A stretch of DNA of 16,389 nt from Candidatus Jordarchaeia archaeon. Lineage in GTDB: Archaea > Asgardarchaeota > Jordiarchaeia > Jordiarchaeales > Jordiarchaeaceae. The position numbers and the translations under genes are program-made. Below are positions 1 to 16,389 of this stretch, piece by piece. Below the pieces are notes generated by a model. The model had not been told where the DNA came from, ran no database searches, and saw only the letters and a list, made by a program, of their open reading frames with translations. Each line of letters starts with the position of its first letter. Position 1 is the stretch's first letter. The stretch is taken from the NCBI GenBank assembly GCA_029856435.1, contig JAHQXB010000135.1, forward strand, positions 1-16,389, given 5' to 3'.

Positions 1-119
1 CTGTCCTCCTCTTGCTGTTGTCCGCCGCAAAGGATCACCGCGTGGAGCCGGTCCCTCTTCAATCTGTTCTTCTCGTTCTTCCAGAGTTCACGCAACAACT
101 TCACATCAACATCACGGGT
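1..119 (-). pseudogene. IS630-family-like transposase N-terminal (HTH) fragment, runs off the window edge
   Basis: Manual - strand translation gives TRDVDVKLLRELWKNEKNRLKRDRLHAVIL, resembling the 'LRELYKxEKxxRxRDRLxAVLL' N-terminus of IS630 transposases as I recall it. An in-frame stop lies just upstream and there is no clean start. GC is ~60% in the first 60 nt. Confidence 0.45.
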
Positions 120-199
120 AACTATCCACTATAATCATCACAAACACAACAATAACATAGATCACTACTGTTATAAAAGTTTACTGAAGTACTATATAC

Positions 200-415
200 A
201 GGGCGTTTATGACCATGGCGAGGACGGCGCCACCGGATGTGATCTTCTGCTGGTCGTTTGCTCCCCACGATGTGGTTTATCTCTTCCGCCGGGTGGATTT
301 TCCTGCAGTCGCTGGAAACAATTCCCAGATGGTTGATTACTTTGCTACGGTATTCCATGTCTCAATCATTGTTCTTGAAATTAATAAAAATATAAGTAAG
401 GGTGCGGAAAGTAGG
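200..415 (-). mobile_element. Truncated IS1634-family (DUF4277-type) element: left end plus frameshifted transposase N-terminus
   Basis: MEYRSKVINHLGIVSS..AEEINHIVGS (from 358) continues after a frameshift as DQQKITSGGAVLAMVINAL, matching the IS1634 N-terminal pattern 'LDHLGIVAG..EEID....QQKITxGxAVxAMxxNxLG'. Similarity stops near 200. GGGTGCGGAAAGTAGG at 400-415 resembles the terminal repeat I recall for this family. Confidence 0.7.
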
Positions 416-440
416 ATAAAAGAGTTAAAAGGGAGGTATA

Positions 441-1073
441 ATGAAGTTAGAGCAAAGGCTAAAGAAAAGAGACCTCGAGAGGATACTAAGTGAATTGGAG
501 GTTAATCCCTCTCCGAAGGTTGAATGGGAACAGTACGCGTCTTCCAGTGAGGTTGCGGCAAGTCTTCTATTTATAGCCGCATTCACTTTCAATGACATCA
601 TTGGACGTGAAGTTTTCGACTTAGGATGTGGAAATGGCGTGTTGGGTATTGGAGCCGCATTAATTGGAGCTAAGCGTGTAGTGGGAGTAGATTTAGACTC
701 AAGGGTTTTAAATGTTGCAAGAAACAATGCTTTGAAGGTAGGAGTTTCCAATTTAATTGATTTTGTAGCTATGGACGTCTCGGATCTAACCGGTTCGTTT
801 GACACTGTTTTACAAAATCCTCCTTTTGGTGTTCGTAGAAGATTTAGTGATAGAATATTTTTAAAAAAGGGAATAGAGATTGCCGATGTGACGTACACTA
901 TTCATAAATACGGTTTAAAAAACAGAAGATTTATTACTCAATTTGTGCTGGAAAATGGTGGGATAGTTGATAGAATTATTCCTATGAAGATGGCCCTTTC
1001 CCCAACATTCCCCTTTCATACTAAAACAAAACATGTTGTTGAAGTAGATATTTACAGAATATTAAAAAATTGA
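441..1073 (+). CDS. METTL5-family SAM-dependent (N6-adenine RNA) methyltransferase
   Basis: N-terminal KVEWEQY motif, SAM-binding DLGCGNG, catalytic NPPFG, GGAGG RBS at 432-436, and the usual position upstream of csl4-rpoL. Confidence 0.9.
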   Translation: MKLEQRLKKRDLERILSELEVNPSPKVEWEQYASSSEVAASLLFIAAFTFNDIIGREVFDLGCGNGVLGIGAALIGAKRVVGVDLDSRVLNVARNNALKVGVSNLIDFVAMDVSDLTGSFDTVLQNPPFGVRRRFSDRIFLKKGIEIADVTYTIHKYGLKNRRFITQFVLENGGIVDRIIPMKMALSPTFPFHTKTKHVVEVDIYRILKN

Positions 1074-1213
1074 AAGAAAAAAATATTTTATGTTGATAAT
1101 TGAGATATTTTAGCAAATAAGTATATACCATCTGTTCTATTAAACATAAAAAATTGAGTATAATAATTGTTAAAAATCGGCTATTATTTTTAAAATTGTA
1201 AGGTGATCTAGAG

Positions 1214-1789
1214 TTGCAAGGCGGAAACAAACCAAAAACGGGAAATTTAGTAACTCCTGGTGACTGGTTAGGTGTTATTGAAGAATTTACTCCAGGAGAG
1301 GGCACATACGAGGAAAACGGAGCTGTTTACGCGTCAACTGTTGGTCGCCTTTTAATCGATAATGTAGAAAAAAGAGTGAAGGTAATACCAATTGAGGCAC
1401 GTGCATTACCCAAGAAGGGCGATATAGTCTTAGGAAAAGTTACCCAAATTAATAAAATGTTGACGTTTGTGGATATTGGTCGAGTAAGAGGCCATGATAT
1501 CGCTAATCCTTTTTCGGGTGTAATTCACATCTCGCAAATAAGTACGGAATATGTAGAAAACACTTCAGACGCATTGAAACCCGGAGATATTATTAGAGCA
1601 AGAGTAGTAGAGGAGAAAGGTGAACTAATTCAATTAACAACAGTTGAAAAAAATCTGGGGGTTATATATGCTGCATGCTCTAAGTGTGGTTCTGAACTTG
1701 AAAGAACAGGAAACATTCTTTATTGTAAAAACTGCGAATCAAAAGAAATTAGAAAAATAGCCAGCGATTACGGAAGAGTAAAACTATAA
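1214..1789 (+). CDS. csl4: Exosome complex RNA-binding subunit Csl4
   Basis: N-terminal VTPGDWLG..EEFTPGEGTYE, S1 domain, C-terminal CSKC..CKNC zinc ribbon. TTG start with AGGTGA RBS at 1201-1206. Confidence 0.95.
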   Translation: MQGGNKPKTGNLVTPGDWLGVIEEFTPGEGTYEENGAVYASTVGRLLIDNVEKRVKVIPIEARALPKKGDIVLGKVTQINKMLTFVDIGRVRGHDIANPFSGVIHISQISTEYVENTSDALKPGDIIRARVVEEKGELIQLTTVEKNLGVIYAACSKCGSELERTGNILYCKNCESKEIRKIASDYGRVKL

Positions 1790-1949
1790 AATGCGGAGTA
1801 AAATAGATGAAGACTCTAAGTAATAATTTTTACAGATAGCAATTAATTCTGTGAAACACATAAATGGTAAATGGCTACCATAAATATGAAATACTAATAA
1901 ATACAATGTTCATAAAAAGTTACTAATAGTACCATTTGAGGCTTAAATT

Positions 1950-1957
1950 TTTATAAA
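1950..1957 (+). promoter_or_regulatory. Candidate TATA box for rpoL
   Basis: TTTATAAA about 31 nt upstream of the rpoL ATG. Confidence 0.4.
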
Positions 1958-1988
1958 CACTAAGAGACGTAATAGAAGATGATGGACC

Positions 1989-2276
1989 ATGAATATAAAG
2001 ATCTTGGAGAAAAGGGACAATGAGCTTAGAGTGGAAATAGAAGGTGAAGGGCACACTTTATGCAACGCCATAAAGTCTGTACTCTTTGAAGACGAAACAT
2101 TAGTATTTGCAGGTTATCGAATAGAGCACGCATTGCTTTCAAAACCTGTCTTATATATAAGTACAAATGGGAAAAAAGATCCCTTAGTTTTACTGAATGA
2201 AACTCTTAAAAAGTTAGAAATGAGAATTGAAGAATTTAAAGAGAAATTCAGAAGGGAGCTTGAAAAATTAAACTAA
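1989..2276 (+). CDS. rpoL: DNA-directed RNA polymerase subunit L (Rpo11)
   Basis: EIEGEGHTLCN and AGYRIEHAL motifs, 95 aa, follows csl4. Confidence 0.95.
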   Translation: MNIKILEKRDNELRVEIEGEGHTLCNAIKSVLFEDETLVFAGYRIEHALLSKPVLYISTNGKKDPLVLLNETLKKLEMRIEEFKEKFRRELEKLN

Positions 2277-2290
2277 AGGAAGAAATTAGT

Positions 2291-2341
2291 TATAAAACCC
2301 ACGGCGAGAAAGCCTTCCGATTCTCAGTCATGGGAGTGTCA
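2291..2341 (+). other. GC-rich hairpin; possible IS200/IS605-end-derived mini-element or structured RNA leader
   Basis: CCCACGGC-GAGAA (2298-2310) pairs with TTCTC-A-GTCATGGG (2321-2334). The 3' part GAAAGCC..CAGTCATGGGAGTGTCA resembles IS605-type end sequences. Confidence 0.35.
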
Positions 2342-2420
2342 TACCCTTTAGCAAGGGAGTGATTCCACGAGTTCTCATAAAAAGAATGAATGTACTTGCG
2401 GTAGGGACGTTACTAATAGA

Positions 2421-2831
2421 ATGTCTGTAAAAGAAATTTTAACTGATAAAAACTTGGCCAAACTTGGAGATAACATTGCAAATCTTCTATACTCCTTGGT
2501 GAAATCAAAAATGTTTGGCAAGCCAGATGGCGCCAAAATACCCGATACACTTTTGGCGGAGGCGGTGAGGCGAGCAAATCTAAGAAAGTACGTTTCTACT
2601 AGGCAAAATGCTCATAGTTTAGGCGACGCGGCTGAGGCGCTAATCGCTTATTCTTGGCTGAAAGATTACTTTGAAATTAAAGAAACAGCAGAAAAAATTG
2701 CCACACTAATTCCTCAAAGAAAAATATTAAACCGTAAAACTGAAAAGGAAACAACCATACAAATCTTCGCATCTCTACTGCAACAGCTTTATGAAAAAGT
2801 TGTAGAGGGGAAGAATCAAAATAATAAGTAA
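2421..2831 (+). CDS. Archaeal ribonuclease III-family (mini RNase III-like) protein
   Basis: DKNLAKLGD..NLLYSL and LGDAAEALIAYSWL match the archaeal stand-alone RNase III-like family, which is usually found near rpoL/tfs. Confidence 0.8.
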   Translation: MSVKEILTDKNLAKLGDNIANLLYSLVKSKMFGKPDGAKIPDTLLAEAVRRANLRKYVSTRQNAHSLGDAAEALIAYSWLKDYFEIKETAEKIATLIPQRKILNRKTEKETTIQIFASLLQQLYEKVVEGKNQNNK

Positions 2832-2879
2832 TCGCCATTTAGAACACCAAGAAATTTAATGCAAAAGTAGGTGAGATCA

Positions 2880-3221
2880 ATGGAGTTCTGTCCTAAGTGT
2901 AATTCAGTAATGTTCCCAACAAAGACAGATAATGGAACTGTTAAACTGAGATGTAGGAGTTGTAATTATACTATTGAATTGGAAAAGGAATCAGTAGAAA
3001 AGTACAAAATTAAAAAGGAAATAAAGCATACCCCGAGAGATAAAACAGTGATAATAGAAGACGCAGACGCAGTTCAACCTATGCCTACAGTAAAAGTTAG
3101 CTGTCCCAAATGTAATCACAATAAAGCGGTATACTGGCAACTTCAAACCAGAAGCGCTGATGAGGGGTCAACCATATTCTATCGATGTATTAAGTGCCAC
3201 CACACTTGGAGAACTTACTGA
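2880..3221 (+). CDS. tfs: Transcription elongation factor TFS (RpoM/Rpb9-like)
   Basis: Two zinc ribbons (CPKC..CRSC; CPKC..CIKC) and the acidic hairpin QTRSADE. Start moved to ATG 2880 because the AGGTGAG RBS is at 2869-2875. Confidence 0.95.
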   Translation: MEFCPKCNSVMFPTKTDNGTVKLRCRSCNYTIELEKESVEKYKIKKEIKHTPRDKTVIIEDADAVQPMPTVKVSCPKCNHNKAVYWQLQTRSADEGSTIFYRCIKCHHTWRTY

Positions 3222-3438
3222 AGAATATTGCCAGCTAGTGGGAAGTAAATTTATATCTTTTAAATTATTCCATGATTTCAAATTAAATAACTATTTTTGA
3301 TAGAAAAATACTAGGGTCCATACTTAACAAATTTGTATACTGAATATCCTCATCAATATTACAGTAACACTAAGGTTCAAAATCTGAAATAAGCCACATA
3401 TAATTCGATTTCCATTAAAGTGGCGAGAGGACAAATAG

Positions 3439-3924
3439 ATGAGACATGAAAAAGTAGCTTTTATCGGGCTTCCCGCTGTGGGGAAAACCAGCATCATAAC
3501 CCTTTTAAGCGAAAACAGAACAGTCACTAACTACGAACAGACCATCGGTATATCATTCGGTTTTGTGACATTGGGTGAGTGCGAAGTTAGCCTTTTTGAT
3601 ATTGCGGGGCAAGATCGTTTTCGTTTTTTGTGGAATGGTTTTATGCGAGGAGCGAAGGTCATCTTTGTAGTTACTGATTCAACCCCCATAAACGTTTTAA
3701 ACACCCGCAAAATAATTGAAGAATTTTGCAATAAACCTAATACTATAGTTTTAGCTATAGCTAATAAACAGGATCTTCCAGGTGCGATGAAGCCCTCGCA
3801 AGTTGAAGATCTTTTAAATGTAAAAACGTATGGAATGGTTGCAATCGACCCCAGAAAGAGGACGAAAATGTGCCACATACTTAGAGAAGCTTTGGAGCAA
3901 ATCATAATTGAACGCTCCAACTAA
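3439..3924 (+). CDS. Small Ras-superfamily (Arf/Rab-like) GTPase, Asgard eukaryotic-signature type
   Basis: G1 GLPAVGKT, G2 QTIG, G3 DIAGQ followed by RFRFLW, G4 NKQD, atypical G5 GMVAID; 161 aa. An in-frame stop lies immediately before the ATG. Confidence 0.9.
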   Translation: MRHEKVAFIGLPAVGKTSIITLLSENRTVTNYEQTIGISFGFVTLGECEVSLFDIAGQDRFRFLWNGFMRGAKVIFVVTDSTPINVLNTRKIIEEFCNKPNTIVLAIANKQDLPGAMKPSQVEDLLNVKTYGMVAIDPRKRTKMCHILREALEQIIIERSN

Positions 3925-4038
3925 TCTCATAAAAGATTCACAATTAACCTAGAACATTGAGAAAGATCCACCTGATTTTTGGGGCAGTAATACATTTAAT
4001 AGAGTCTTTACATTTCAATATTTGAAGAGTTGATTTTA

Positions 4039-4410
4039 ATGTCGCGTAATCAGCAGAATGAGGGTGGTTCATGGAAACCTAAGCATCCTGCAATTGAAAA
4101 ACAGATTAAGGATATTGCTGTAAATGATGTTTCTTTCATTAAGGTTCTTGGTGTTGTTTTAGAGAAAAGACAAAACGTCGCCCTTATTGATGATGGAACT
4201 GGTAAGGCAAAAATTGTGGCTTTTGATGATGCAATATTGAGCAAAGTTAAAGTAGGTGATAAGGTAAGAATATTTGGAACAGTTTTACCAGCAGAAGAAG
4301 AGGGCGAAATACAAATCAACGCGAGTATAATTCAAAACATGAATAAACTTAATATGGAGTTACGCTCAGAAGTGGAGCGGTTAAAGAAATCTGTAGAAAA
4401 GATGTTTTGA
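4039..4410 (+). CDS. Single OB-fold protein, RPA small subunit (RPA14/Rpa3)-like
   Basis: KHPAIEKQIKDI..IKVLGVV..LIDDGTG..VKVGDKVRIFG..IIQNM plus a C-terminal helix, the same layout as Thermococcales RPA14 (RRRPAVERKI..LDDGTG..GQVVRVIG..VIQDF). Confidence 0.75.
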   Translation: MSRNQQNEGGSWKPKHPAIEKQIKDIAVNDVSFIKVLGVVLEKRQNVALIDDGTGKAKIVAFDDAILSKVKVGDKVRIFGTVLPAEEEGEIQINASIIQNMNKLNMELRSEVERLKKSVEKMF

Positions 4411-4521
4411 TTTAACCCAGGGAGCTTATAAAGGGGAATAACAGAATTATGGTGAGAACTGTTTAAAAATGAATGGTACTGTAATATGCACCTGTAAATT
4501 AATTATTTAAATGAGACATGG

Positions 4522-4540
4522 GTGATTTGCCTCAAATCAC
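4522..4540. promoter_or_regulatory. Perfect 8-bp inverted repeat upstream of PCNA (candidate operator or hairpin)
   Basis: GTGATTTG-cct-CAAATCAC, directly followed by AT-rich TATA-like sequence, 43 nt before the PCNA ATG. Confidence 0.4.
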
Positions 4541-4582
4541 TTATATTAGTTTATAGGAAAACCCTTAAAAAAGGTGATATGT

Positions 4583-5338
4583 ATGTCTCTTAAATTCGCC
4601 TTTACGGATGCGAAGCTTTGGAAAAACATTATAGACGCTCTATCTGGTTTAGTTGATGAACTAGTTTTCATAGCAGACAAAAATTCTCTGCACGCTAGGG
4701 CGATGGATCCCAGTCATGTAGCTATGGTTGACTTCGAATTACCAAAAAACGCCTTTAGCGAATATAACTGTAGTGGTGAAGTTAAACTGGGCATAAACCT
4801 TGAGGACATGTCTAGAATAATGAGAAGAGCGGGGGGTGGAGACGCATTAGAGTTGTCGCTTGATCCAGAAAAGAATAAGCTTAATGTTACATTTAGAGGT
4901 ACATCCATACGCACTTTCCATATTGGCTTGCTTGATTTGACACATGAGGAAACTCCTGTTCCCTCAATTAAATTTAATGCTGAAATCAAAATGACTGCAG
5001 ACGCTTTGAAGGAGGCCTTGAAAGACGCAGAAGTGATAAGTGACCATGTAGAAGTCGAGGCTACCCCTGAAGAGTTGGATATCAATGCTTCAGGGGACAC
5101 AGGGGGGGTGGAAATTAAGTTGCCTAAATCTAGCGACGCAGTTCTTGAGTTAAATGTAATTGAAAATTCTAAAGCAATGTATGCTCTCAGCTACTTAATG
5201 GATATGATGAAGGCAGCGGCGGCAAGCGATACAGTTACAGTTCAGTTCTCAACCAGTATGCCCATAAAACTAGAATTCAACATTATTGGCGGAGGACGCT
5301 TAACATATTGGCTGGCTCCAAGAATAGAAGCAGAATAA
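4583..5338 (+). CDS. pcn: DNA polymerase sliding clamp PCNA
   Basis: RAMDPSHVAMVDFELP and C-terminal YWLAPRIE. AGGTGA RBS at 4572-4577 supports ATG 4583. Confidence 0.97.
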   Translation: MSLKFAFTDAKLWKNIIDALSGLVDELVFIADKNSLHARAMDPSHVAMVDFELPKNAFSEYNCSGEVKLGINLEDMSRIMRRAGGGDALELSLDPEKNKLNVTFRGTSIRTFHIGLLDLTHEETPVPSIKFNAEIKMTADALKEALKDAEVISDHVEVEATPEELDINASGDTGGVEIKLPKSSDAVLELNVIENSKAMYALSYLMDMMKAAAASDTVTVQFSTSMPIKLEFNIIGGGRLTYWLAPRIEAE

Positions 5339-5629
5339 ATGAGGTATAGAAACGAGATTCTGTTTGAGAGCGATGCTTTTTTAATTAATTAAAATTTATA
5401 ATTAGCAATACATGTGCAGAACAATACCAAGCAAAAAGTTCTGGAGGAAATTTAAGACGCATCTTAAAACTAGTTTGTATTGTAGTGTGTTTTTTCTGAG
5501 TTAAATTTACTGTTTTCACAAGTGTTTAAATGTTCAACTAGAATATATTAGTTTAAGGGTCAAAATTAGGAAATGGATGAAAAATATTAATTTCGTTTAT
5601 TAACCAAGTTAGATAAGGGTTTAAGTGAA

Positions 5630-6682
5630 ATGGTGTTTATGTCATCCAAAGGGGATTTAGCTAAGTACCCATTCACAAAGGAAGCCCAGAAATATATTGA
5701 GAATCTTAATTTAGATATCAGGGATTTAGTTTCTCCGAAGTATTCTTCTCTTCTTAGAAGAGGTGGTGAAAGGGTCATTGAAGCTTTAGAAAAGGGGATT
5801 GTTTCTTACAAAGATAATAATTATGTAGAAGAGCTCCTTTCTTTTCCATTGGCGCGTCTACTTGTCGAATCATTAGGAGACGATTATTTAAGGAGAAGAT
5901 ATGCGGTTGCAGAGTCTAAACGTGTTGATAAACTTTTAGCGATGGAAGAAAATGATAAACTGATTTATATTGCAAGAGAAACATTTGGGTGGGATATTAG
6001 AAAGGCGCCACGTCAAAGCATTGGTGGGCGTTTTTACGATTATGAACTAAATGTTGTCAATTATTTGGAATATGCTCCATATTTTCAGGATAAATACTGG
6101 AAACTAGTAAACAGAGTTTTGCATAAGGGTTACGTATATCTTCGGAAAAATGATGTGGCTAGGTTGATCTCTGAAGCGGTAAAGTGGCGACTTATGGAAA
6201 AAAAAGGTAAACCACCGGTTCTGCCACCAGAAATAAAAGAAATGGTTAATATAATAGAATCGAAGTTAGTAGCCCAAAAAAAAGATAGAGGTATTGATGG
6301 GGGGTTTGGTGAAGTCTCCAGAGATAGTTTTCCTCCCTGCATATCGAAAATTTTATCCGACGCTATTGCAGGTAAAAGTATGTCTCATCACGCAAGGTTT
6401 ACCCTTACCTCTTTCCTGATAAATATAGGCGTGTCTGTTGATGAGCTTGTAGAAATATTTAGTAATGTTGCTGATTTTGATGAGGAACTAACTAGATATC
6501 AAGTGGAGCATATCGCAGGAATTAGAGGAGGAGGAACAAAATATACTCCACCGACATGCAGCACACTTAAAACATATGGTCTATGCGAAAAAAATGAGTT
6601 ATGCCAAGGGGTAAAGCATCCTCTAAATTATTATCGTAATAGTTTGCGTAGACAAAAAGGAAGCGAAAAAACAGTTATTTGA
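5630..6682 (+). CDS. priL: DNA primase large subunit
   Basis: DLAKYPF N-terminus; Fe-S domain FPPCI..HHARF..YQVEHIAG..YTPPTC..C..C..HPLNYY. The alternative start is ATG 5639. Confidence 0.95.
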   Translation: MVFMSSKGDLAKYPFTKEAQKYIENLNLDIRDLVSPKYSSLLRRGGERVIEALEKGIVSYKDNNYVEELLSFPLARLLVESLGDDYLRRRYAVAESKRVDKLLAMEENDKLIYIARETFGWDIRKAPRQSIGGRFYDYELNVVNYLEYAPYFQDKYWKLVNRVLHKGYVYLRKNDVARLISEAVKWRLMEKKGKPPVLPPEIKEMVNIIESKLVAQKKDRGIDGGFGEVSRDSFPPCISKILSDAIAGKSMSHHARFTLTSFLINIGVSVDELVEIFSNVADFDEELTRYQVEHIAGIRGGGTKYTPPTCSTLKTYGLCEKNELCQGVKHPLNYYRNSLRRQKGSEKTVI

Positions 6683-6744
6683 GTTGGCATTATTAATAAT
6701 ATTTGACCGGTAGATAATAAATTGATTTTAGGGTGGAATTTTGA

Positions 6745-7986
6745 ATGAGTACCGCTGACTTTTTAACGAATTTATTTGGGAAGTATTATGAGGATAATTT
6801 TGATAGAATAATTTCGCCCTCTAACCTGCGCAAGAGAGAATTTGGTTTTATGTTTTTTAAGTATGGTTCAATTATTAGACATTTAAGTTTTGATGATGAG
6901 AACCAGTTAAAAACGTTTCTAGCTAGAGAGGCGCCCTCAGATGTGTTCTACTCTGCCGCTTACTATATCCAGCCAGCTATGCCTAAAATGCCTATGAAGG
7001 GATGGGAGGGATGTGATTTAATTTTTGACATTGATGCAGACCATATTGAAACGAGTTGTAAAAATGAACATGACAGGTGGAAGTGCCAGGTGTGTGGGAA
7101 GGCAGACAAGGGAATTAAACCAGATAAATGCCCCATTTGTGGAGAGTCAAAAATCGAAGAGTTAAAATGGCTCTGCGATACTTGCTTGGATTATGCTAAG
7201 CTCGAGACAATTAAAATTGTGGAGGATTTTCTAATTCCTGACTTTGGAATATCTAAAAGTGAAATTGGTATCTGTTTTTCTGGGCACAGAGGGTACCATA
7301 TACATGTCGAGTCAGAAGTGGTGAAGAAGCTTAATTCTCAAGCAAGAAGAGAGATAATAGACTATATTAAAGGCGGCGGAATTGATCCAGAGTTACATGG
7401 ACTTCAAGAAATTGGACGCAAAAAGCTAATCACGGGACCTGACACTAATGATAAGGGGTGGGGAGGGCGAATTACACGAAACGTTATTAAATTTATTTCC
7501 AAGTTACAGGAAAATGAAATTCTGATGGAAGACAAGTCCACAAGGAAAAAATTGCTGACGTTAATAAAAGAAAAGCAAAATATAATAAATTCCCTGAGCC
7601 GACATCCTCCGCTTTGGGATGTGATGAGAAATATTGACATCAACTTCTGGTTTCTCATTGTGGAGCGCGCTATAAATATGGCTAAGGGGGAAATCGATGA
7701 ACCGGTTACTGCGGATATACATAGACTTATACGCCTTCCAACATCTATTAATGGAAAAACAGGCTTCCAAGTGAAACCCTTAAAATTGAATGAAATAGCT
7801 AGCTTTGATCCCTTCAGCGATTCGCAAATTTTTGAGGGGCAAATGACGGTACACACGAGTGATGTGCCTACTTTTAGAATTGGAGAAGAAACCTTTGGGC
7901 CCTTCAAAGACGAAAAAGTTGAACTGCCACTGTCTGCGGCAGTGTTTCTCCTCTGTAAAGGAGTTGCCCAAATTCTAAAAACTTAA
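6745..7986 (+). CDS. priS: DNA primase small (catalytic) subunit
   Basis: REFGF, FDIDAD, SGHRGYH and DIHRLIRLPTSINGKTG motifs, with a Cys-rich insertion. Confidence 0.96.
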   Translation: MSTADFLTNLFGKYYEDNFDRIISPSNLRKREFGFMFFKYGSIIRHLSFDDENQLKTFLAREAPSDVFYSAAYYIQPAMPKMPMKGWEGCDLIFDIDADHIETSCKNEHDRWKCQVCGKADKGIKPDKCPICGESKIEELKWLCDTCLDYAKLETIKIVEDFLIPDFGISKSEIGICFSGHRGYHIHVESEVVKKLNSQARREIIDYIKGGGIDPELHGLQEIGRKKLITGPDTNDKGWGGRITRNVIKFISKLQENEILMEDKSTRKKLLTLIKEKQNIINSLSRHPPLWDVMRNIDINFWFLIVERAINMAKGEIDEPVTADIHRLIRLPTSINGKTGFQVKPLKLNEIASFDPFSDSQIFEGQMTVHTSDVPTFRIGEETFGPFKDEKVELPLSAAVFLLCKGVAQILKT

Positions 7987-8000
7987 TTGGGGTAAGTGCT

Positions 8001-8540
8001 ATGTATGAAAAAATCTATAGTGCCTGGGAGAAAGAACAGAAAGAAGAAAGCTTACAGAAACTTGAAGCTAACTTCTACATTGAAGCTAAAAAATTTTTAG
8101 AAGAAATAAAACTAGACAAAAATGAATCGGATTTATTAGCGAGTAAGCTTGTCAAAAGAGAATATGATATGCTCTATCTAATATTAAATGATCTCATAAA
8201 TATCCGGCTTGGGAAAATTTTGGGGAAAATACGTGCCAAAAAGGAACTAAACACTGAAAAATTAACACAGGAAGAAAAAGTAGTATATGAACACCTTAAA
8301 AATGCATTCTCGCAACTTTTTAATGGAAAAAGCCTCTCCCCAGAAATTAGAGTAATCGAAGAAAAGGATGAAACGTTTATTCCAATTCGATTTTTAAAGC
8401 AGATCCCAGCTATAGTGGGGAGCGATATGAAGATTTATGGGCCGTTCCAAGTTGAGGACATTGCCACTCTACCAAGAGAGAATGCAAAAGCGTTAGTATT
8501 AAAAAATGCTGCGAAGCTTCTATTTTTTCAACAAATTTAA
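8001..8540 (+). CDS. gins15: GINS complex subunit Gins15 (Gins51)
   Basis: Helical A-domain (LQKLEANFY, IRLGKIL) plus C-terminal B-domain (IRFLKQIPAIVGSDMKIYGPF..EDIATLP..NAKAL), directly after priS. Confidence 0.9.
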   Translation: MYEKIYSAWEKEQKEESLQKLEANFYIEAKKFLEEIKLDKNESDLLASKLVKREYDMLYLILNDLINIRLGKILGKIRAKKELNTEKLTQEEKVVYEHLKNAFSQLFNGKSLSPEIRVIEEKDETFIPIRFLKQIPAIVGSDMKIYGPFQVEDIATLPRENAKALVLKNAAKLLFFQQI

Positions 8541-8703
8541 TTTAGATGACATCTTCTGGGGAATAGCAAATAAGGTTGTCAGCTTTTTCTTCTAAATGCA
8601 TATAAAATCGAAAGGTATAAAATGAGTTGTGGATATTGCTCAAATTACATATAAGTGTAATCATTATTGTCTAAATAATCGAACATAGAGAGGGTGTATA
8701 CTG

Positions 8704-9012
8704 ATGTTATATCCTAAAGAAAAACGTACCTACTGCCCGAAGTGCAGAACATACACTGTACACTCCATTTCCTTGTATAAGAAGGGTAAGGACAGAAAAA
8801 TGGCACAAGGTGCTAGGCGTTATAGTAGGAAGAAAAAGGGGTATGGTAGTCAGCCTAAACACTTCTACATATAATTGTAGAGCTGGGGCAAACCAATACA
8901 AAAAAGATTTGCTAAGACTACCAAAAAGTTTTCCCTTAAGTTAAAATGCAAAGAGTGTGGGTATACCATTCAAAAGAAGGGAATGCGTCTTAAAAAATTG
9001 GAAATTCAGTAG
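8704..9012 (+). CDS. rpl44e: 50S ribosomal protein L44e (eL42), split: join(8704..8858,8892..9012), 91 aa after splicing
   Basis: Exon 1 [52 protein letters not shown], then exon 2 [47 protein letters not shown] at 8692-8696. Canonical position between gins15 and rps27e. Confidence 0.93.
8859..8891 (+). other. 33-nt candidate bulge-helix-bulge/loop mRNA intron in rpl44e
   Basis: Contains in-frame TAA (8872-8874) and TAG (8878-8880). 4-bp central helix GCCU(8853-56)/GGGC(8886-89), AAA bulges at 8857-59 and 8890-92, and an intron stem TCTACA/TGTAGA. Cleavage after the second nucleotide of each bulge gives CCT AA|A CCA in frame. Confidence 0.82.
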
Positions 9013-9027
9013 GAGTGTATCCTGCAT

Positions 9028-9231
9028 ATGGTTAAACGCAAAGAAATTTTGCCTCAACCTAAAAGTAGGTTTATTAATGTGCAATGCTCCGATTGTGGTT
9101 CCGAGCAGATTGTTTTTGATAGGGCAAGCACCATTGTTAAGTGCAACGTATGTGGTAAGCCTCTAGTAAAACCACTTGGAGGAAAAGCAGTAATAATGGT
9201 TAAAAAAAGTAAGCAACAGTTTCTAAGTTAG
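9028..9231 (+). CDS. rps27e: 30S ribosomal protein S27e
   Basis: PQPKSRFINVQCSDC..QIVF..VKCNVCG..PLGGKA. Confidence 0.95.
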   Translation: MVKRKEILPQPKSRFINVQCSDCGSEQIVFDRASTIVKCNVCGKPLVKPLGGKAVIMVKKSKQQFLS

Positions 9232-9242
9232 ACTAGGTGATA

Positions 9243-10037
9243 ATGGTGGTCAGGCCAAAAAGGGAATACCCAGAAAAGGGGGACTTGGTGATTGGAACAG
9301 TCACCAGAATTGCTAATCACGGAGCATATGTTCAGCTTGATGAGTACGATAACAAAGAGGGAATGATTCACATATCGGAAATCGCTCTGAGTTGGGTTCG
9401 AAACATAAGAAATTTTGTTAGAGAAAAACAGAAAGTAGTGGCAAAAGTGCTCAGAATAAACCCCCAAAAAGGATTCATAGATCTTTCTTTGAGGCGCGTT
9501 AATGAACAGCAAAGACGCCAAAAAATACAAGAATGGAAAAGAACTCAAAAGGCAGAAAAACTCTTGGAAATGGCAGCCGCGAAAATTGGAAAAACTCTAG
9601 ATGAAGCATATACGGAAGTAGGTTCCAAGTTAGAAGAAGCATATGGCAGCATATACAGAGGCTTAGAGATAATATCTGAGAAAGGATTAAAAGTATTAGA
9701 GGATTTAGGGGTAAATAAAGAATGGATTGAAGTAGTTACCGAAATAGCGAAAACGCACGTGGAACCTCCAAAAGTTAACGTTGCAAGAACAGTAGAAATG
9801 ACTTGCTGGAAGCGTGCAGGTATAGAAGCCATAAAAAAAGCTTTTAGAGATGCAATTAGCGCTGTCCAAAACGAGGAAATTACTATAAATATATACACTC
9901 TAGGCTCACCAAAGTATCGCATAGAAATCACCGCCGATGATTACAAACAAGCCGAGTCTGCATTAGAAAAAATTATTAACACCGCCAAGGCAAGCATAGA
10001 GAATGAAGGCGGAACATTGGTGATTCCAAAAAGTTGA
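9243..10037 (+). CDS. eif2a: Translation initiation factor 2 alpha subunit
   Basis: S1 domain (YPEKGDLVIGTV..HGAYVQLDEY..IHISEI..GFIDLSLRRV) and C-terminal GSPKYRI. AGGTGA RBS at 9235-9240. Confidence 0.97.
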   Translation: MVVRPKREYPEKGDLVIGTVTRIANHGAYVQLDEYDNKEGMIHISEIALSWVRNIRNFVREKQKVVAKVLRINPQKGFIDLSLRRVNEQQRRQKIQEWKRTQKAEKLLEMAAAKIGKTLDEAYTEVGSKLEEAYGSIYRGLEIISEKGLKVLEDLGVNKEWIEVVTEIAKTHVEPPKVNVARTVEMTCWKRAGIEAIKKAFRDAISAVQNEEITINIYTLGSPKYRIEITADDYKQAESALEKIINTAKASIENEGGTLVIPKS

Positions 10038-10043
10038 TATTCT

Positions 10044-10232
10044 CTATGTTCCCCTAGACGTTTCACGCTTCATGTAAAATTCCCTTTTTTGCTGGCGCCT
10101 CCATTTGCCAACGCGATCTTCAATTGAGAATCTTGAAGGATGCGGTATTCTTACGTTACCCCCACAATAAGGACAAACCTCTTTGAAAGTATACTCCCCA
10201 CAAACTATACATTTCCGAAGCAAAAATTTCAT
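10044..10232 (-). CDS. nop10: H/ACA RNP protein Nop10
   Basis: LRKC..CGEYTFKEVCPYCG..PHPSRFS.ED..GKWRR, with GGAGG RBS upstream on the - strand. Confidence 0.9.
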   Translation of the reverse strand: MKFLLRKCIVCGEYTFKEVCPYCGGNVRIPHPSRFSIEDRVGKWRRQQKREFYMKRETSRGT

Positions 10233-10395
10233 TTATAAACCTCCAGTTAAAGACGTGATTAAAAATGAAAAATATCACGATTATTTCTAAGTAATTTAAT
10301 TTAAAAATTGTTTGGGATTGTTCAATTAGAACGCTAGCTCATGTCTGTTAACCTTGATTAAAGTCCTCTCTAATCTCGTTATCAAGCTCACGGTT

Positions 10396-12999
10396 TTACT
10401 CCACTAGAACGATTTTTTCTTCATAAAAGTCAGGTATACTTGTAGCTATTTTAATGAGTAGTTTATCGCCTGCGTTAACGGTTTGAGTTACTTTGAATTC
10501 AATTTGTTTTGTTTCTCCCGGTGCTAAACTTATTGGGAGGGTTATATCAAGTGTGCAGCTAGTCCCGTTTGAAAGTATTTGGGTGATGTTGTAAGTAGTT
10601 AATCCAGTATTGCTTATGTTTAGAATACCCGTTGAATTAGTATACACTGCCAGATTATTGATGTCTAGTTTTGAGTCTAGAATTGAGTAGTCTATCTCGT
10701 AGATTTTCACAAGCCCGTTGCTGGATATAAATATGGGTTTAAAATGGTTGAGGGTTCTAAAACCTGGAGTCCAACTGGACCCCAGGTATATATATGTAGT
10801 TTGAAGCGTTTCGTTTCCACCAATAACCAAAGGATATTTATTGTTGCTCATTTGAGTATACAGGTTACGGTTTAGAGTGTTGTAGTAATTGGGATGAAGT
10901 TTTGGTTCTGGGGCGTGATAGTACAATAGTTTATAGATTGTGCTATTAAAGAAGGCTTCTTGAATTGTTGATGTTCCTGGTAAAACGTAGGGGTTATAGA
11001 ACTGGTATTCATATGGTGTGTTGGCAATGAAATTATTTATGTACTCTTGAGATGCTCCGGATTGGTAGAGGTTCTGCACCAAGTTTATTACTTCATCAAA
11101 TGAGATTCTAACCATCCATAACCATTTTCCTTCATCACCGTGTATGTTTGCATCGTTGTATCCGAAGAACACCAGTACATGTGTAGCATTAAATCTTCGG
11201 AAATCCTCCAAAGATCTTATTTCACTAGTTTCCATAAAGGCGCGACCAATCCAGCCTATTTGTGTGAAGTTGCGAGTGTTCCCATCCGCCAAAGTTATCT
11301 TTCCACCTTTAACTGTAATCCAGTAACCATAGTCCCACCAAGCTGCAACCACTGCGTTCTCGGGAAGTTCATTTCTCATAAATGAAAACGCTTGATCCCA
11401 ATCTAGATATGCCCCACCATAACTATCTCTAACTATCATTGAGGGCGGTGGAGAGTATATGGTAGTATTTACTCCCTGGAGGAAAGCGTAGACTAAAATT
11501 ATTCCCACTATTGCAAAAACCAGCAGAGCTGTGTCACGTCCGAGGGGAACACTAATTCTCATTCTTCGTCTCCTAGCTATTGTTAGGGTCTTTTTAGTGA
11601 TAACTTGCGCTAATGGTTTAAATATTATTGACAAGGCATAGGCGCTAAGTATACATGCCGCAGGAGCTAACATGATAATAATGCGAATCATTGAACCAGT
11701 AAAATATGTTACAGTAGCTCCATATACTATTAAGAGTAAATCTTCTTCGTATCTTCTCTTAAATGCAAAGTATAATCCTACTGGAAAAAGAACAACAAGA
11801 AAGTTGAGGTCATAAAAGAAGATTCCCCAGGGGGTTGGCATTTGTTCCGCAACACTTGCGACAATGTGTTGTTCTTCCCTATATGTAGGGTAAATAATTG
11901 AAATGAATTTCGCTGCGAGTCCAGAAATGTTACCAAAAGCGTCCAAGTTAGCGATAATGAGCACGGCTACCAAAATTGAAACTATTCCCCCTACTAGTAT
12001 TAGGAATCTTTTTCTGTTTTGAAAAAACCATTGGACTTTTTCCAAAGCTTTTCCTTTTAAAGGAATATATCTAGTAACACTATCTAGAATCATTGTTCTC
12101 TGGGCATTAAGGTGGAGGAAAACCTCATAAAATAAGAGTATTGCCAAAACAATAAGTGCAGGGATAACACTCATAGATTTTAAAGCATCTGAACCACCCG
12201 TGGCGGGTACACGTGTAATAATAAAAATTGCTAAAGTAATTGTAACACTATAGGTCATAAAGAGGCGGGGCGTGTATTTTTTTATCAACAATAACAGTAT
12301 TGTAGTCAGGGGAAATATATACATTAGGTATAGGTAGGCCCCCCAACTAGCCGCCAATCCTCCTAAGCAGAGACCAGCAAAAACAGCAGATATTATTGAA
12401 CCTCTTTTTAGGGAACGTACGAAGAAGTATAGGGATAGCACTAGAAACAGCATCCCTACTGACTCATTATCAAAAAAGCCAACCATGGTTCTCTCAATAA
12501 AAGCAGGAGTAAACGCCAGGAGGAAGGCCGCAATAAGACCGGTCTTTTTGTCTAGAATTTCTTTCCCTAAGAAATAGGTTGCTACACAAGTTATAGCACC
12601 CATAAACGCCGGAAAGAAATAACAAATCATATAAATGTCAATATTAAACCCAATGGCATGTAGCAAAAAATATATGGTTGCGGCGGCGAAAGGGGTTCCC
12701 GGAAAGAATGATTGAGACATATCCCTGCCGATAGGATACCATGAGGCGTGATCATACCAACTAAACCATGAGTCAAAACCAAATATTGAAATATATAGAG
12801 CATTTTCATACTGGAGCCATGGATCGAAGGCTCTTATATAGGGGGGGTAGATAAAGAAAGGTATACATCTTATACAGAGTGCTATTATGAAAACCGAGAT
12901 AAGAGATAGAACTAGTAATATGGCTTGCCTGTTTACTTGGACCCTTGGTATAGGGATCAGCTTTTTTGCCTCGTATATAAACAGTTGAAGTTTAGACAC
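10396..12999 (-). CDS. aglB: Oligosaccharyltransferase AglB/STT3
   Basis: Multi-TM N-terminus with FDPW, FFDNE and SVAEQ; soluble domain with WWDYG, DGNT and DEGKWLWMVRI (DK motif). GTG start. Confidence 0.96.
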   Translation of the reverse strand: MSKLQLFIYEAKKLIPIPRVQVNRQAILLVLSLISVFIIALCIRCIPFFIYPPYIRAFDPWLQYENALYISIFGFDSWFSWYDHASWYPIGRDMSQSFFPGTPFAAATIYFLLHAIGFNIDIYMICYFFPAFMGAITCVATYFLGKEILDKKTGLIAAFLLAFTPAFIERTMVGFFDNESVGMLFLVLSLYFFVRSLKRGSIISAVFAGLCLGGLAASWGAYLYLMYIFPLTTILLLLIKKYTPRLFMTYSVTITLAIFIITRVPATGGSDALKSMSVIPALIVLAILLFYEVFLHLNAQRTMILDSVTRYIPLKGKALEKVQWFFQNRKRFLILVGGIVSILVAVLIIANLDAFGNISGLAAKFISIIYPTYREEQHIVASVAEQMPTPWGIFFYDLNFLVVLFPVGLYFAFKRRYEEDLLLIVYGATVTYFTGSMIRIIIMLAPAACILSAYALSIIFKPLAQVITKKTLTIARRRRMRISVPLGRDTALLVFAIVGIILVYAFLQGVNTTIYSPPPSMIVRDSYGGAYLDWDQAFSFMRNELPENAVVAAWWDYGYWITVKGGKITLADGNTRNFTQIGWIGRAFMETSEIRSLEDFRRFNATHVLVFFGYNDANIHGDEGKWLWMVRISFDEVINLVQNLYQSGASQEYINNFIANTPYEYQFYNPYVLPGTSTIQEAFFNSTIYKLLYYHAPEPKLHPNYYNTLNRNLYTQMSNNKYPLVIGGNETLQTTYIYLGSSWTPGFRTLNHFKPIFISSNGLVKIYEIDYSILDSKLDINNLAVYTNSTGILNISNTGLTTYNITQILSNGTSCTLDITLPISLAPGETKQIEFKVTQTVNAGDKLLIKIATSIPDFYEEKIVLVE

Positions 13000-13116
13000 T
13001 ACTAACCGCCAACTGAATCCAAATATTTTTACTTTTAGTTTATTTCGTTTCAGTTATTTTTAAGAATATCGCGAGAATAAACTTCGATTGAGTATGGTTA
13101 TATTTTAATTTTTGGG

Positions 13117-14259
13117 TTATTGAATTTTTTTTATTAAAATTTGGTGGTATCCGGTGATTACCCTGATGTATCCTCTTAGGGTCTCATCAAGTTCAGGGGA
13201 ACCGGTGTCAACCCTTAGTGTTGGTATTGTTGAGAGCTTGTAAGGCGTGGCTATAACAATAATATTTTCAATTCCCACTTTGTTAATCACCTCAGGGCTT
13301 ATTTGTTGATTCCCCCGCCCGAAAATAAAGCCTTGACGGCCTATAGGTGTTACAATTATTTTGGATTTTGCATTTTTTATAACTCTGAGGATCTCGCGCT
13401 CATCAGCATCTTTCGCAATAATTCTTCTATTTTGAACTAAATCTACTCCCAGTAATGTTTTGTCTATGCCCAATAAGTCAGCTATCGCTTTGCAAGTGGT
13501 TCCAGGACCAAGTATATAAACTGTATTGGGTTCTAGGTTCTCAACAACACTACGAGCTATGGCATTTTGATCCTCTATCTCATTTGTTGTTTGTGGACTC
13601 ATCCATTTGGAGCCTTGTAAGTACTGAGGTTCATAGGGGGTTATTGCGTAACCTTTCAACTGGACATTTAACGCATCTCTTCTAAACAGTTGCTCATTGA
13701 CATCCATTACTTCGGCTTCTCTAACTGGAAGTTCACCCCATAAATAACGTAATGTAATGAAACCAGCGGTTTTTGGGGTTGTAGCGAATGTGGCCGACCA
13801 GATTTTTACTCCCGAAGGAATTCCTAAAATTGGGATCTTTTGGTCTATAGCTTCAAGTATGTCGACTGTGGTGCCGTCGCCGCCAGCATAAAGGATTAAT
13901 TCGGCTCCCCTCTCAGCCATTATTCTAGCTGCTTTTTTAGTATCTTCAGAGGTGGTTTTTATAGAAGGAAGTTCACCAACCACCTCTGGTTCAAAGCCAC
14001 ACTCTCTCGCCTCATCCTCACCCATAATACTAGGAAAAGTTAAAAGTCTTAATACATCCTTCAAGGGTTTAAGAACAAGCAGAGCCTCCTTGGCTCTTTC
14101 GGGCGAGATTGGCTTCGCCCCCAATTCAATTGCCCTTCGGACTAATTCAGGATTATCTGAACCTTTAAACGCATATTTACCTGCGATTCCCGCAATTGGA
14201 TTCACTATTAATCCGAGGATTTTACTTTTTAAACTTGGTTGCCGCGTCTTTTCAAGCAT
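13117..14259 (-). CDS. ATP-NAD kinase family protein (COG3199-like)
   Basis: GLIVNPIAG..KGSD, GGDGT, LGIPSGVKIWS, GPGTT, TLLGVD, FIFGRGNQQISP. A GGTGA RBS at 14267-14271 supports ATG 14259 rather than the ORF-track start 14385. Confidence 0.85.
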   Translation of the reverse strand: MLEKTRQPSLKSKILGLIVNPIAGIAGKYAFKGSDNPELVRRAIELGAKPISPERAKEALLVLKPLKDVLRLLTFPSIMGEDEARECGFEPEVVGELPSIKTTSEDTKKAARIMAERGAELILYAGGDGTTVDILEAIDQKIPILGIPSGVKIWSATFATTPKTAGFITLRYLWGELPVREAEVMDVNEQLFRRDALNVQLKGYAITPYEPQYLQGSKWMSPQTTNEIEDQNAIARSVVENLEPNTVYILGPGTTCKAIADLLGIDKTLLGVDLVQNRRIIAKDADEREILRVIKNAKSKIIVTPIGRQGFIFGRGNQQISPEVINKVGIENIIVIATPYKLSTIPTLRVDTGSPELDETLRGYIRVITGYHQILIKKIQ

Positions 14260-14450
14260 TTGCATATCACCATCAAATAACTTTTTTAAAGTAAGGAGCT
14301 CTCTAAACTTTTTAAATTTGAAATACATCTTACTGAGGGAGTGCCCAGCTTGCTCTATTTGGCGCCACTTGGTGGGAACCCGCATAATATTATTTTTCGA
14401 TATGCCTATTCCTATTTTAATTATGTAGCTGGTTGTTAAGGATCAACTAT

Positions 14451-14493
14451 GTACAAATTACTTATCACCTAAGTACAAATTAGTATCGCTTAA
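14451..14493. repeat. Imperfect 22-bp tandem repeat (2 copies)
   Basis: GTACAAATTActtatcacctaa / GTACAAATTAg-tatcgcttaa, starting at 14451 and 14473. Confidence 0.55.
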
Positions 14494-14604
14494 TCTAAGA
14501 AAATGAAAAATAAGTCCAAAAAAGTAATATTTGGTTTTGCAGCTAAGAGGGTGAGGCATATACCGTTTTTTGAGTTCAAATATAAAAATAGCAGAAATGA
14601 AAGA

Positions 14605-15903
14605 TTAACCCTTTGAAACGATTTCTTTGACTATGCCCACTGCTATTGTATTGCCCGAATCTCTTACTGCAAATCTACCTAGCTGAGGTATTTCTTTGTA
14701 CAATTCGACGCACATTGGCTTCGTCGGTTCCAATTGTACTAATGCTGCGTCGCCCCGTTTAATGTAATCGGGGTTATCTTCAACCACTTGACCCGTGCGT
14801 CTATCAATTTTTGCTATTAGTTTTGTAAATCTGCAGGCTACTTGTGCTGTGTGAGCGTGAACCACTGGGCAGTACCCAACAGAGATTGCAGAAGGAAATT
14901 GAATTACTACTAGCTGTCCAACAAATTCTTTTGCGACTGTTGGGGGGCTAGTCTTATGCCCAGCAACGTCACCTCTTCTGAGGTCCTTTTTGGCTACGCC
15001 TCTAACATTGAAGCCTATATTGTCCCCTGGAACAGCTTCAGGAATAGCTTCGTGGTGCATCTCTATGGATTTGACTTCACCCTCTACGTTGGCTGGTTGG
15101 AAGACTACAGTATCGCCTACTTTTAGAACACCAGTTTCGACTCTTCCAACTGGCACTGTACCGACACCAGTAATTGTGTAAACGTCTTGTATAGGGATTC
15201 TAAGCGGCTTATCTAAAGGCTTGGGGGGAACAACAAACTTGTCTAATGCTTCAACTAAAGTTGGTCCTTTATACCATGGCATTTTATCGCTGTGCTTGAC
15301 AATGTTATCGCCTAACCATGCTGAAATTGGGACGAAATCCACATTTTCAACTTTAAAACCCACACTCTTAAGTAACTCGTTAACCTCGTTCTTAACTTCA
15401 TTATATCTGTCTTGGCTCCAATTAACTGAAGCGTCATCCATCTTATTTATGGCAACTAGAATTTGATTCACTCCTAGAGTAAATGATAAATATGCATGTT
15501 CTCTGGTTTGTCCTCCGATACCAATGCCTGCCTCAAACTCTCCCTTTCTTGCCGAAACAACTAAAATTGCTGCATCCGCTTGGCTTGTGCCAGTAATCAT
15601 GTTTTTAATAAAATCGCGATGACCTGGTGCGTCAATTATTGTGAAATAGTATTTACCGGTTTCGAATTTCCAGAAGGAAATGTCGATTGTTAGCCCTCTT
15701 TCTCTTTCTTCTTTGAGCCTATCTAGAACCCATGCAAATTTAAAGCTCCCTTTTCCAATTTTCTCCGCTTCTTGTTCGTACTGTTTTATAGTTCTTTCGT
15801 CAATTGCGCCCATTAGGTAAAGTAAGTGTCCTACCATAGTGCTCTTTCCATGGTCTACGTGTCCTATGATTACCAAGTTTAGATGTGGTTTTTTCGTTGA
15901 CAT
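14605..15903 (-). CDS. tuf: Translation elongation factor EF-1 alpha
   Basis: [39 protein letters not shown]; 432 aa, intact. Confidence 0.98.
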
Positions 15904-15978
15904 TTTTTATTCACTTCGTTTATTTTTTTCAGTTCTTTGTTCTGTTAATTCATATTCTGTTGTATTTAAATTTTTTTT

Positions 15979-16309
15979 GGAGAAACTGACCGGGAGAAAA
16001 CCCTGGCCGCCCTCATAGCGGAAGACGGAAAAAGCCCTGAGGGAAATCGCCAAAACCGTGAATGACCTAAACCTAGACATGACCGCCAAAGGGAAAGAGG
16101 GGAGCAGAAAACCCTGCTCGTGGCACGTATCACTATCACATCAAGAAGGTGGGCGGGAAACCCTCGACGAAACACCCACCTCATCTACAAGGGTGGAGGC
16201 AAGAATATATGAAGAGATAACGGGGGAGAAACCAAATGTCTTTGCCGTGGACGGAAGCGCAAAAACAAAAGCCCACACTGAGGAGACCATCATAGTCGCC
16301 CGGGCGTAG
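15979..16309 (+). pseudogene. Unidentified frameshifted GC-rich coding relic
   Basis: GC is ~50-55% against ~35% in the flank. Protein-like segments switch frames (ETDREKTLAALIAE / EKALREIAKTVNDLNLD / KTLLVARI / ARIYEEITGEKPNVFAVDG). There is no intact ORF and I cannot name the family. Confidence 0.35.
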
Positions 16310-16389
16310 CACCCTCACCCACAAGCCCCAACCCTACCAGATAGCTGCAAACACTGAAACCAACCATAGGGGTGGATGCCCTTTCAAAG

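Follow-up and report, generated by a model that had tools for sequence, protein, structure and literature searches.

BHB introns in archaeal mRNAs have been described in crenarchaeal cbf5 (Aeropyrum, Sulfolobales, Desulfurococcales; Watanabe 2002; Yoshinari 2006; Yokobori 2009, PMC2738675). In Haloferax volcanii, HVO_1309 carries a BHB intron in the 5′ UTR of its mRNA, and cbf5 was stated to be the only other case (PMC7714728). Introns are present in 92 to 95% of tRNA genes of Freyarchaeia and Atabeyarchaeia, with none reported in mRNAs (PMC11291895). The paper describing Jordarchaeia does not mention introns. Our literature search, with subscription journals largely outside its reach, found neither an L44e intron nor an Asgard BHB mRNA intron. 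This agrees with the first-pass annotation of the locus, which knew of no such intron in either rpl44e or the ribosomal protein genes of Asgard archaea. The present study deals with a 16,389-nucleotide stretch of Jordarchaeia DNA (the window, positions 1 to 16389). In this stretch, 33 nt at about 8859 to 8891 very likely constitute an archaeal BHB intron, of the relaxed BHL form, in the single rpl44e gene of the genome, and this intron would be removed by EndA and RtcB.

Like the crenarchaeal cbf5 intron, the rpl44e intron is short, lies inside a coding sequence, has a BHB/BHL motif and shows gain and loss among related lineages. Removal of the crenarchaeal intron is reportedly the work of a hetero-oligomeric tRNA splicing endonuclease, the enzyme type also presumed for rpl44e. 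The hosts differ, being a ribosomal protein in Asgard Jordarchaeia here and a pseudouridine synthase in Crenarchaeota there. Furthermore, whereas cbf5 splicing was shown experimentally, rpl44e splicing is a prediction. The HVO_1309 intron also resides in an mRNA that is a substrate of the archaeal splicing endonuclease, as presumed for rpl44e. However, it lies in an untranslated leader and involves a homodimeric EndA and a strict BHB, while the rpl44e intron interrupts a codon. Non-canonical archaeal tRNA introns (Marck and Grosjean 2003) resemble the rpl44e intron in their 4-bp helix, opposite 3-nt bulges and intron hairpin. They also share the presumed enzymes, have a similar size range and occur in the same lineage. 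In contrast to tRNA introns, where the exon part of the motif is a tRNA helix, the exon part in rpl44e is codon-constrained coding sequence. Since the rpl44e product is an mRNA and the insert brings in-frame stops or a frameshift, splicing would be obligatory for its translation.

The rpl44e gene (window 8704 to 9012, + strand) encodes eL42 (L44e) and is complete by its open reading frame and translation, save for a 33-nt insert with in-frame TAA and TAG codons. The first-pass annotation had described just this, an otherwise intact eL42 gene interrupted by 33 nt with two stops, and both the frame and the Pfam matches confirm it. The frame opens at the ATG at 8704 and hits TAA at 8872 to 8874 and then TAG at 8878 to 8880 (together 8872 to 8880, + strand), and the eL42 reading resumes downstream. 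Exon 1 matches positions 1 to 37 of the Pfam profile Ribosomal_L44 (PF00935; E = 4e-12) and exon 2 matches positions 38 to 76 (E = 1.3e-12). Because the two matches abut at profile positions 37 and 38, the insert is exactly 33 nt long. Exon 1 (8704 to 8858, +) extends from the ATG to the second base of the Lys-52 codon, and exon 2 (8892 to 9012, +) from the third base of that codon to the stop codon at 9010 to 9012. The predicted intron between them (8859 to 8891, +), whose borders follow from placing each cut behind the second base of a bulge, is missing in two relatives, the congener G005 and the metagenome contig Ga0187770. Excision at the bulges gives a 91-aa eL42 with contiguous Pfam coverage. 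Removal of 8857 to 8889, 8858 to 8890, 8859 to 8891 or 8860 to 8892 leaves an identical mRNA, so the product does not fix the cut register, both bulges being AAA. Thus, the earlier proposal that cutting after the second bulge base restores eL42 holds, while its exact borders of 8859 to 8891 are one of four registers with the same product. BLAST of the intron against its own genome found no second copy; by sequence, therefore, the intron is not a repeated element.

The minimum free energy (MFE) fold of 8835 to 8905 has an energy of −17 kcal/mol (z = −2.35). Among 200 shuffles, 5 fold equally well; the single-sequence fold only moderately beats shuffles. In this fold, the exonic GCCU (8853 to 8856, +) pairs with the intronic GGGC (8886 to 8889, +) as the central helix H, which RNAalifold also returns. 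Bulge 1, an AAA at 8857 to 8859 (+), is unpaired in the MFE fold and holds the predicted 5′ splice site between 8858 and 8859; relatives have AAA, AAG or AAU here. Bulge 2, an AAA at 8890 to 8892 (+) that reads AAA or AAG in relatives, holds the predicted 3′ splice site between 8891 and 8892. It forms part of an asymmetric internal loop, in which 8890 and 8891 are unpaired and face 8848 to 8852. In the intron stem-loop h′ (8860 to 8885, +), positions 8860 to 8869 pair with 8876 to 8885 around a C/C mismatch (8862/8883) and a 6-nt loop (8870 to 8875). The 5′ strand of the exon-exon helix h (8841 to 8847, +) pairs with 8892/8893 to 8899, and its 3′ strand (8893 to 8899, +) is found both in the MFE fold and in the alignment. 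The fold first described by eye, with a 4-bp helix, AAA bulges, a C/C-mismatched stem and a 6-nt loop, is thus the one that the computation gives.

The hallmarks of a BHB are present, namely a 4-bp H and 3-nt AAA bulges on opposite strands, with a spacing that is constant in 12 sequences. Each bulge lies 3′ of its strand of H, and for the 3′ bulge this is the position found in pre-tRNA. As for the flanking helices, h′ is present and covaries, whereas h is present but set off from H by a 5- to 6-nt loop. In the modelled structure, the 3′ site of the rpl44e intron is in a relaxed, loop-like (BHL) context and not in a strict hBHBh′. The looser exon-exon helix and BHL-like motif noticed earlier are therefore borne out by the offset of h and the asymmetric internal loop at the 3′ site. 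Motifs of equal quality and spacing occur 239 times in the genome (3.54 Mb, both strands), which is 3.4e-5 per position. A chance match of such a motif with the insert borders defined by homology, allowing for four registers, has a probability of about 1e-4 for this genome alone. The same coincidence of motif and borders is seen again in relatives with other insert lengths.

An insert is found at the same codon in 10 of the 11 genomes examined from the class (Jordarchaeia/Freyarchaeia), in both families. Three more metagenome contigs, located through truncated exon-1 proteins in the protein database and representing two distinct sequences, carry same-site inserts of 33 nt and 34 nt. The comparison set therefore comprises 12 distinct intron sequences, 10 from genomes of the class and two from metagenomes. 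Insert lengths are 29, 30, 33 and 34 nt; four congeners have 33 nt, and genomes of family f2 have 30 nt (G007, G008) or 29 nt (G006, G009, G010). The 29- and 34-nt inserts shift the frame, so that no translational mechanism working within a single frame could make eL42 from these forms, which leaves removal from the RNA as the only route. When each bulge is cut behind its second base, all 12 distinct sequences yield QPKP(I/V)Q and an indel-free protein of 91 aa. The eleventh of these genomes, G005 (the complete genome CP147778.1, Ca. Freyarchaeota SRVP19_Freyarchaeia-1), has no insert and reads CCT AAG CCA. Ga0187770, whose protein is 92% identical to that of G005, also lacks the insert and has the same nine bases. 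The CCT AAG CCA of these intron-less alleles matches the predicted exon junction exactly. No insert is present at the eL42 site in the 30 other phylum genomes that were examined; 17 of these 30 have the motif G(S/G)(Q/F)PKP.

The intron stem core is recognisably homologous between both families, and an intron-bearing congener is nearest to the intron-less lineage by synonymous distance. From these two observations, parsimony suggests that the intron was ancestral to the class, with one gain, and was precisely lost once in the Freyarchaeia-1 lineage. Two candidates were set aside in these searches. Ga0187770, the lone match in a scan of metagenome contigs for the exact spliced junction, had been considered as a cDNA of this organism, and is instead an intron-less allele of the G005 lineage. 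Matches to eL42 of 246 to 249 nt elsewhere in the phylum, considered as introns, are ordinary longer forms of the protein.

The alignment of the 12 related sequences further supports the structure, and it is from these that all covariation is drawn. Standard pairs occupy 89.5% of its cells, compared with 38 to 49% when the 3′ partners are slid by one to three columns. Five pairs show compensatory (two-sided) changes, and the covariation score is matched by 2 of 500 column shuffles. The search of relatives for same-site inserts with covarying pairs, which the first-pass annotation had proposed as a check, has thus found both. Helix H is paired in 97.9% of cells, with G-C/G-U and U-G/C-G variants; in G008, its outer pair is an A/C mismatch. 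For h′, the paired share is 90.6% of cells, with compensatory changes at 4 of its 10 pairs; where this genome has the C/C mismatch, two relatives have a U-A pair. Helix h is paired in 81.9% of cells, and its pair 8844-8896 covaries (U-A, U-G, C-G). This pair apart, h is mostly uninformative, as its GG/CC pairs are fixed by Gly and Pro codons. RNAalifold, with no structure supplied, finds H and the core of h′.

Four further genes of the same genome, cbf5, rtcB, pcm and gatE, are split by inserts of the same geometry, and removal of these inserts restores conserved motifs. In cbf5, the host gene of the classic crenarchaeal mRNA intron, a 31-nt insert (L111:1797-1827, contig C73, − strand; H CACU/AGUG, bulges AGA and AAA) lies inside the catalytic GTLDP. 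Its removal gives GHAGTLDPKVTGVLPVA, with the GTLDP motif restored. The rtcB insert of 30 nt (L049:1547-1576, contig C93, − strand; H CCCG/CGGG, bulges ACA and AAG) contains an in-frame TGA, and its removal gives LPD-AHQGYGFP, the hyphen marking the junction. A 29-nt version lies at this rtcB site in the congener G005 (L108:2725-2850), and family f2 lacks an insert there; the rtcB intron is specific to the genus, and the rpl44e intron is spread across the class. Removal of the 32-nt insert of pcm (L052, contig C109) allows matches to positions 3 to 59 and then 61 to 208 of the PCMT profile, and removal of the 30-nt insert of gatE (L051, contig C73) to positions 2 to 41 and then 47 to 276 of the GatB_N profile; in both genes, Pfam coverage continues past the junction. 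The rpl44e intron is accordingly one of several predicted mRNA introns of this lineage. Genome-wide scans for BHB motifs were compared with a mirror-topology control. Loose motifs showed no excess (about 600 vs 600), and strict stems a small one (15 vs 5 loci). The loose-motif background probably stems largely from boundaries between adjacent genes. Since the scans are too noisy, we give no genome-wide intron count.

The genome encodes two EndA paralogues with the tRNA_int_endo domain (PF01974), of 192 aa and 197 aa, and it also encodes RtcB. One EndA gene occupies 1178 to 1756 of contig C104, and the other is on contig C64. The 192-aa paralogue has its closest match in a solved EndA chain of Aeropyrum pernix, 3P1Z_B (E = 3e-45), presumably the catalytic alpha subunit. 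On visual inspection, this paralogue keeps the conserved Tyr/His/Lys. In the 197-aa paralogue, alignment to the Methanocaldococcus jannaschii enzyme 1A79 places a Ser at a His position that is presumably catalytic. The pair would fit a two-subunit (alpha-beta)2 EndA. Enzymes of the (alpha-beta)2 and epsilon2 types are reported to cut relaxed motifs (PMC5829648). Two EndA paralogues are reported for most Asgard genomes (preprint 10.64898/2026.10.13.758758).

For the rpl44e transcript, we propose that the pre-mRNA folds so that the exonic GCCU (8853 to 8856) pairs with the intronic GGGC (8886 to 8889). This would place the 5′ site in the AAA bulge between H and the intron hairpin, and the 3′ site in the AAA just past H. 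The two-subunit EndA would then cut behind the second base of each bulge, and RtcB would join the exons and probably circularise the 33-mer. The predicted spliced junction consists of CAGCCTAA followed directly by ACCAATAC. The joined mRNA would read ...GYGSQPK-PIQKRF... and encode the normal 91-aa eL42, while an unspliced mRNA would stop at the in-frame TAA and yield a 56-aa fragment. Cleavage, ligation and the exact cut register are steps that we infer for this intron. Very probably, then, an essential mRNA has to be cut and re-joined by tRNA-splicing enzymes in this lineage.

Removal of the insert from the RNA by another nuclease and ligase, or by self-processing of the RNA, is an alternative that the position of the 3′ site outside a canonical bulge would suit. 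Nevertheless, the topology and spacing are those of an EndA substrate, the exon strand of H is conserved, and an EndA of broad-specificity architecture is encoded together with RtcB. The known group I and group II introns are far larger than the 29 to 34 nt seen here. Rfam and ARAGORN found no match over the window. As nothing points to other enzymes, we regard their involvement as improbable, and removal by EndA and RtcB remains the preferred reading.

Translational bypassing (hopping) would leave the insert in the mRNA, with ribosomes taking off at the AAA at 8857 to 8859, skipping 33 nt and landing at the AAA at 8890 to 8892. As in T4 gene 60 and the yeast mitochondrial byps, a short non-coding gap interrupts an essential ORF; in this genome, identical triplets flank the gap, and a hairpin follows the take-off codon. 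Unlike in gene 60-type bypassing, however, the matched codons are not conserved in relatives, and the codon after take-off is CAC rather than a stop. In G006, G009 and G010, the 5′ triplet is AAT (Asn) and the 3′ triplet AAA, so that the codons are unmatched and the conserved Lys is regained only if RNA is joined inside the triplets. What has been conserved is instead the BHB, with its exon-intron 4-bp helix and 3-nt bulges, and the same geometry recurs where cbf5, rtcB, pcm and gatE are interrupted, and there the codons are not matched. These observations make bypassing highly improbable and favor splicing at the RNA level.

Two in-frame stops in a metagenome-assembled genome (MAG) of 181 contigs, with an estimated contamination of 5.7%, could also indicate a decaying pseudogene or an assembly or sequencing artefact. 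The genome, however, is 97.8% complete and has rpl44e at this one locus, with the gene order GINS-rpl44e-rps27e-aIF2alpha undisturbed. A second intact rpl44e beside a decaying copy, which the first-pass annotation had named as grounds for dropping its proposal, is thus not seen in this assembly. Among the spliced coding sequences, pairwise dN/dS has a median of about 0.055 and a maximum of 0.18, and dS exceeds 1.3 between intron-bearing congeners. These values indicate that the exons are under strong purifying selection, and that the intron has been carried for a long time. Retention of the intron under purifying selection with saturated synonymous sites speaks decisively against a pseudogene, and the presence of the insert in independently assembled MAGs and metagenomes of different projects does so against an artefact. 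Accordingly, we consider both extremely improbable.

Translation of the insert as 10 to 11 in-frame residues with recoded stops (e.g., UAG as pyrrolysine) is hardly credible: the 30-nt forms (G007, G008) have a single in-frame TAG and stop-codon recoding has been reported in Asgard archaea, but the same report restricts Pyl to Sifarchaeia and gives Jordarchaeia only Sec at UGA (PMC9723677), the insert of this genome has a TAA too, the 29- and 34-nt forms shift the frame, and the added residues would break a loop that has no insertion in the 30 other phylum genomes examined, 17 of them with G(S/G)(Q/F)PKP.

The earlier reading of the insert as an EndA-type mRNA intron is therefore the one best supported by these comparative data, through the same-site inserts, the restored frame, the covariation, the intron-less junction, the purifying selection and the presence of an EndA pair and RtcB, and we retain it as very likely. 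In the literature searched, archaeal endonuclease-type introns in coding sequences are confined to crenarchaeal cbf5, with the Haloferax 5′ UTR case in addition. To this known kind of intron, our study would add a real and conserved example in an essential Asgard ribosomal protein mRNA, kept in rpl44e while synonymous sites became saturated. Together with the introns of cbf5, rtcB, pcm and gatE, it suggests that in this lineage, which is close to eukaryotes, the tRNA-splicing machinery plays a wider part in maturing mRNAs. Besides, the intron set offers a tractable system for studying intron persistence in coding sequence; the introns sit in the most conserved motifs, in which the exon half of the splice motif cannot drift.

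A more speculative proposal, which we consider rather unlikely, is that endonuclease-type splicing constitutes an obligatory and possibly regulatory step for the core genes of eL42, Cbf5, GatE, PCMT and RtcB in Jordarchaeia. If so, splicing capacity would act as a gate on the capacity for both ribosomes and RNA modification, and the rtcB mRNA would itself need the RtcB ligase to mature. Unspliced messages would have to be kept from ribosomes, or else the cell would have to tolerate truncated products. Such an arrangement would furnish a prokaryotic precedent, in relatives of eukaryotes, for gene expression that depends on mRNA splicing.

The introns also have a consequence for annotation, as gene callers truncate the genes that bear them. 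In intron-bearing Jordarchaeia, the called eL42 (P0084, P0067, P0088) is 56 aa long (window 8704 to 8874 here), or 86 aa where translation runs on into the intron. A search for protein homologues gave only these truncated exon-1 products of 56 aa and 86 aa, and no spliced protein of this organism's type. Since callers stop at or in the intron, public protein sets carry a truncated eL42 for Jordarchaeia.

The neighbourhood of rpl44e across the window is an ordinary archaeal information-processing cluster. On the + strand lie genes for a methyltransferase, Csl4, RpoL, an RNase III-like protein, TFS, a small Arf/Roc-type GTPase, an OB-fold protein, PCNA, PriL, PriS (a 413-aa ORF, named by its sequence), GINS51, eL42 (rpl44e), rps27e and aIF2-alpha. 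On the − strand lie Nop10, confirmed by Pfam, and an 867-aa ORF read as AglB/STT3-like from its sequence alone. Among the other genes of the window that were scanned, none shows an interruption. A second motif passing the BHB filter occurs at 2331 to 2371 (+ strand; H UGGG/UCCA), with a G-U-rich stem. It falls between rpoL (1989 to 2276) and the RNase III-like gene (2421 to 2831), in their spacer, and may be a chance occurrence. Elsewhere in the genome, a hypD gene has a 28-nt BHB-type insert (L053, contig C136), of which only exon 2 scores in Pfam, and an EndoQ-like gene with no Pfam match also has one of 28 nt (L050, contig C24).

Of the 12 distinct sequences, the 11 with inserts of 29, 30 or 33 nt have a stop in the frame of exon 1 (TAG, or TAA in G010) within the 3′ arm of the stem (alignment A3 columns 39 to 48, corresponding to window 8876 to 8885). 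The 34-nt form has no such stop inside the intron. Plain descent could account for the kept stop, as could selection against read-through of unspliced mRNA. The introns of rpl44e, cbf5, rtcB and pcm all sit inside highly conserved motifs, which they divide as QPK-P, GTL-DP, LPD-AHQGYG and ISAP-HM, respectively. Possibly, the exon half of the splice motif can persist only under sequence constraint, which would account for these sites.
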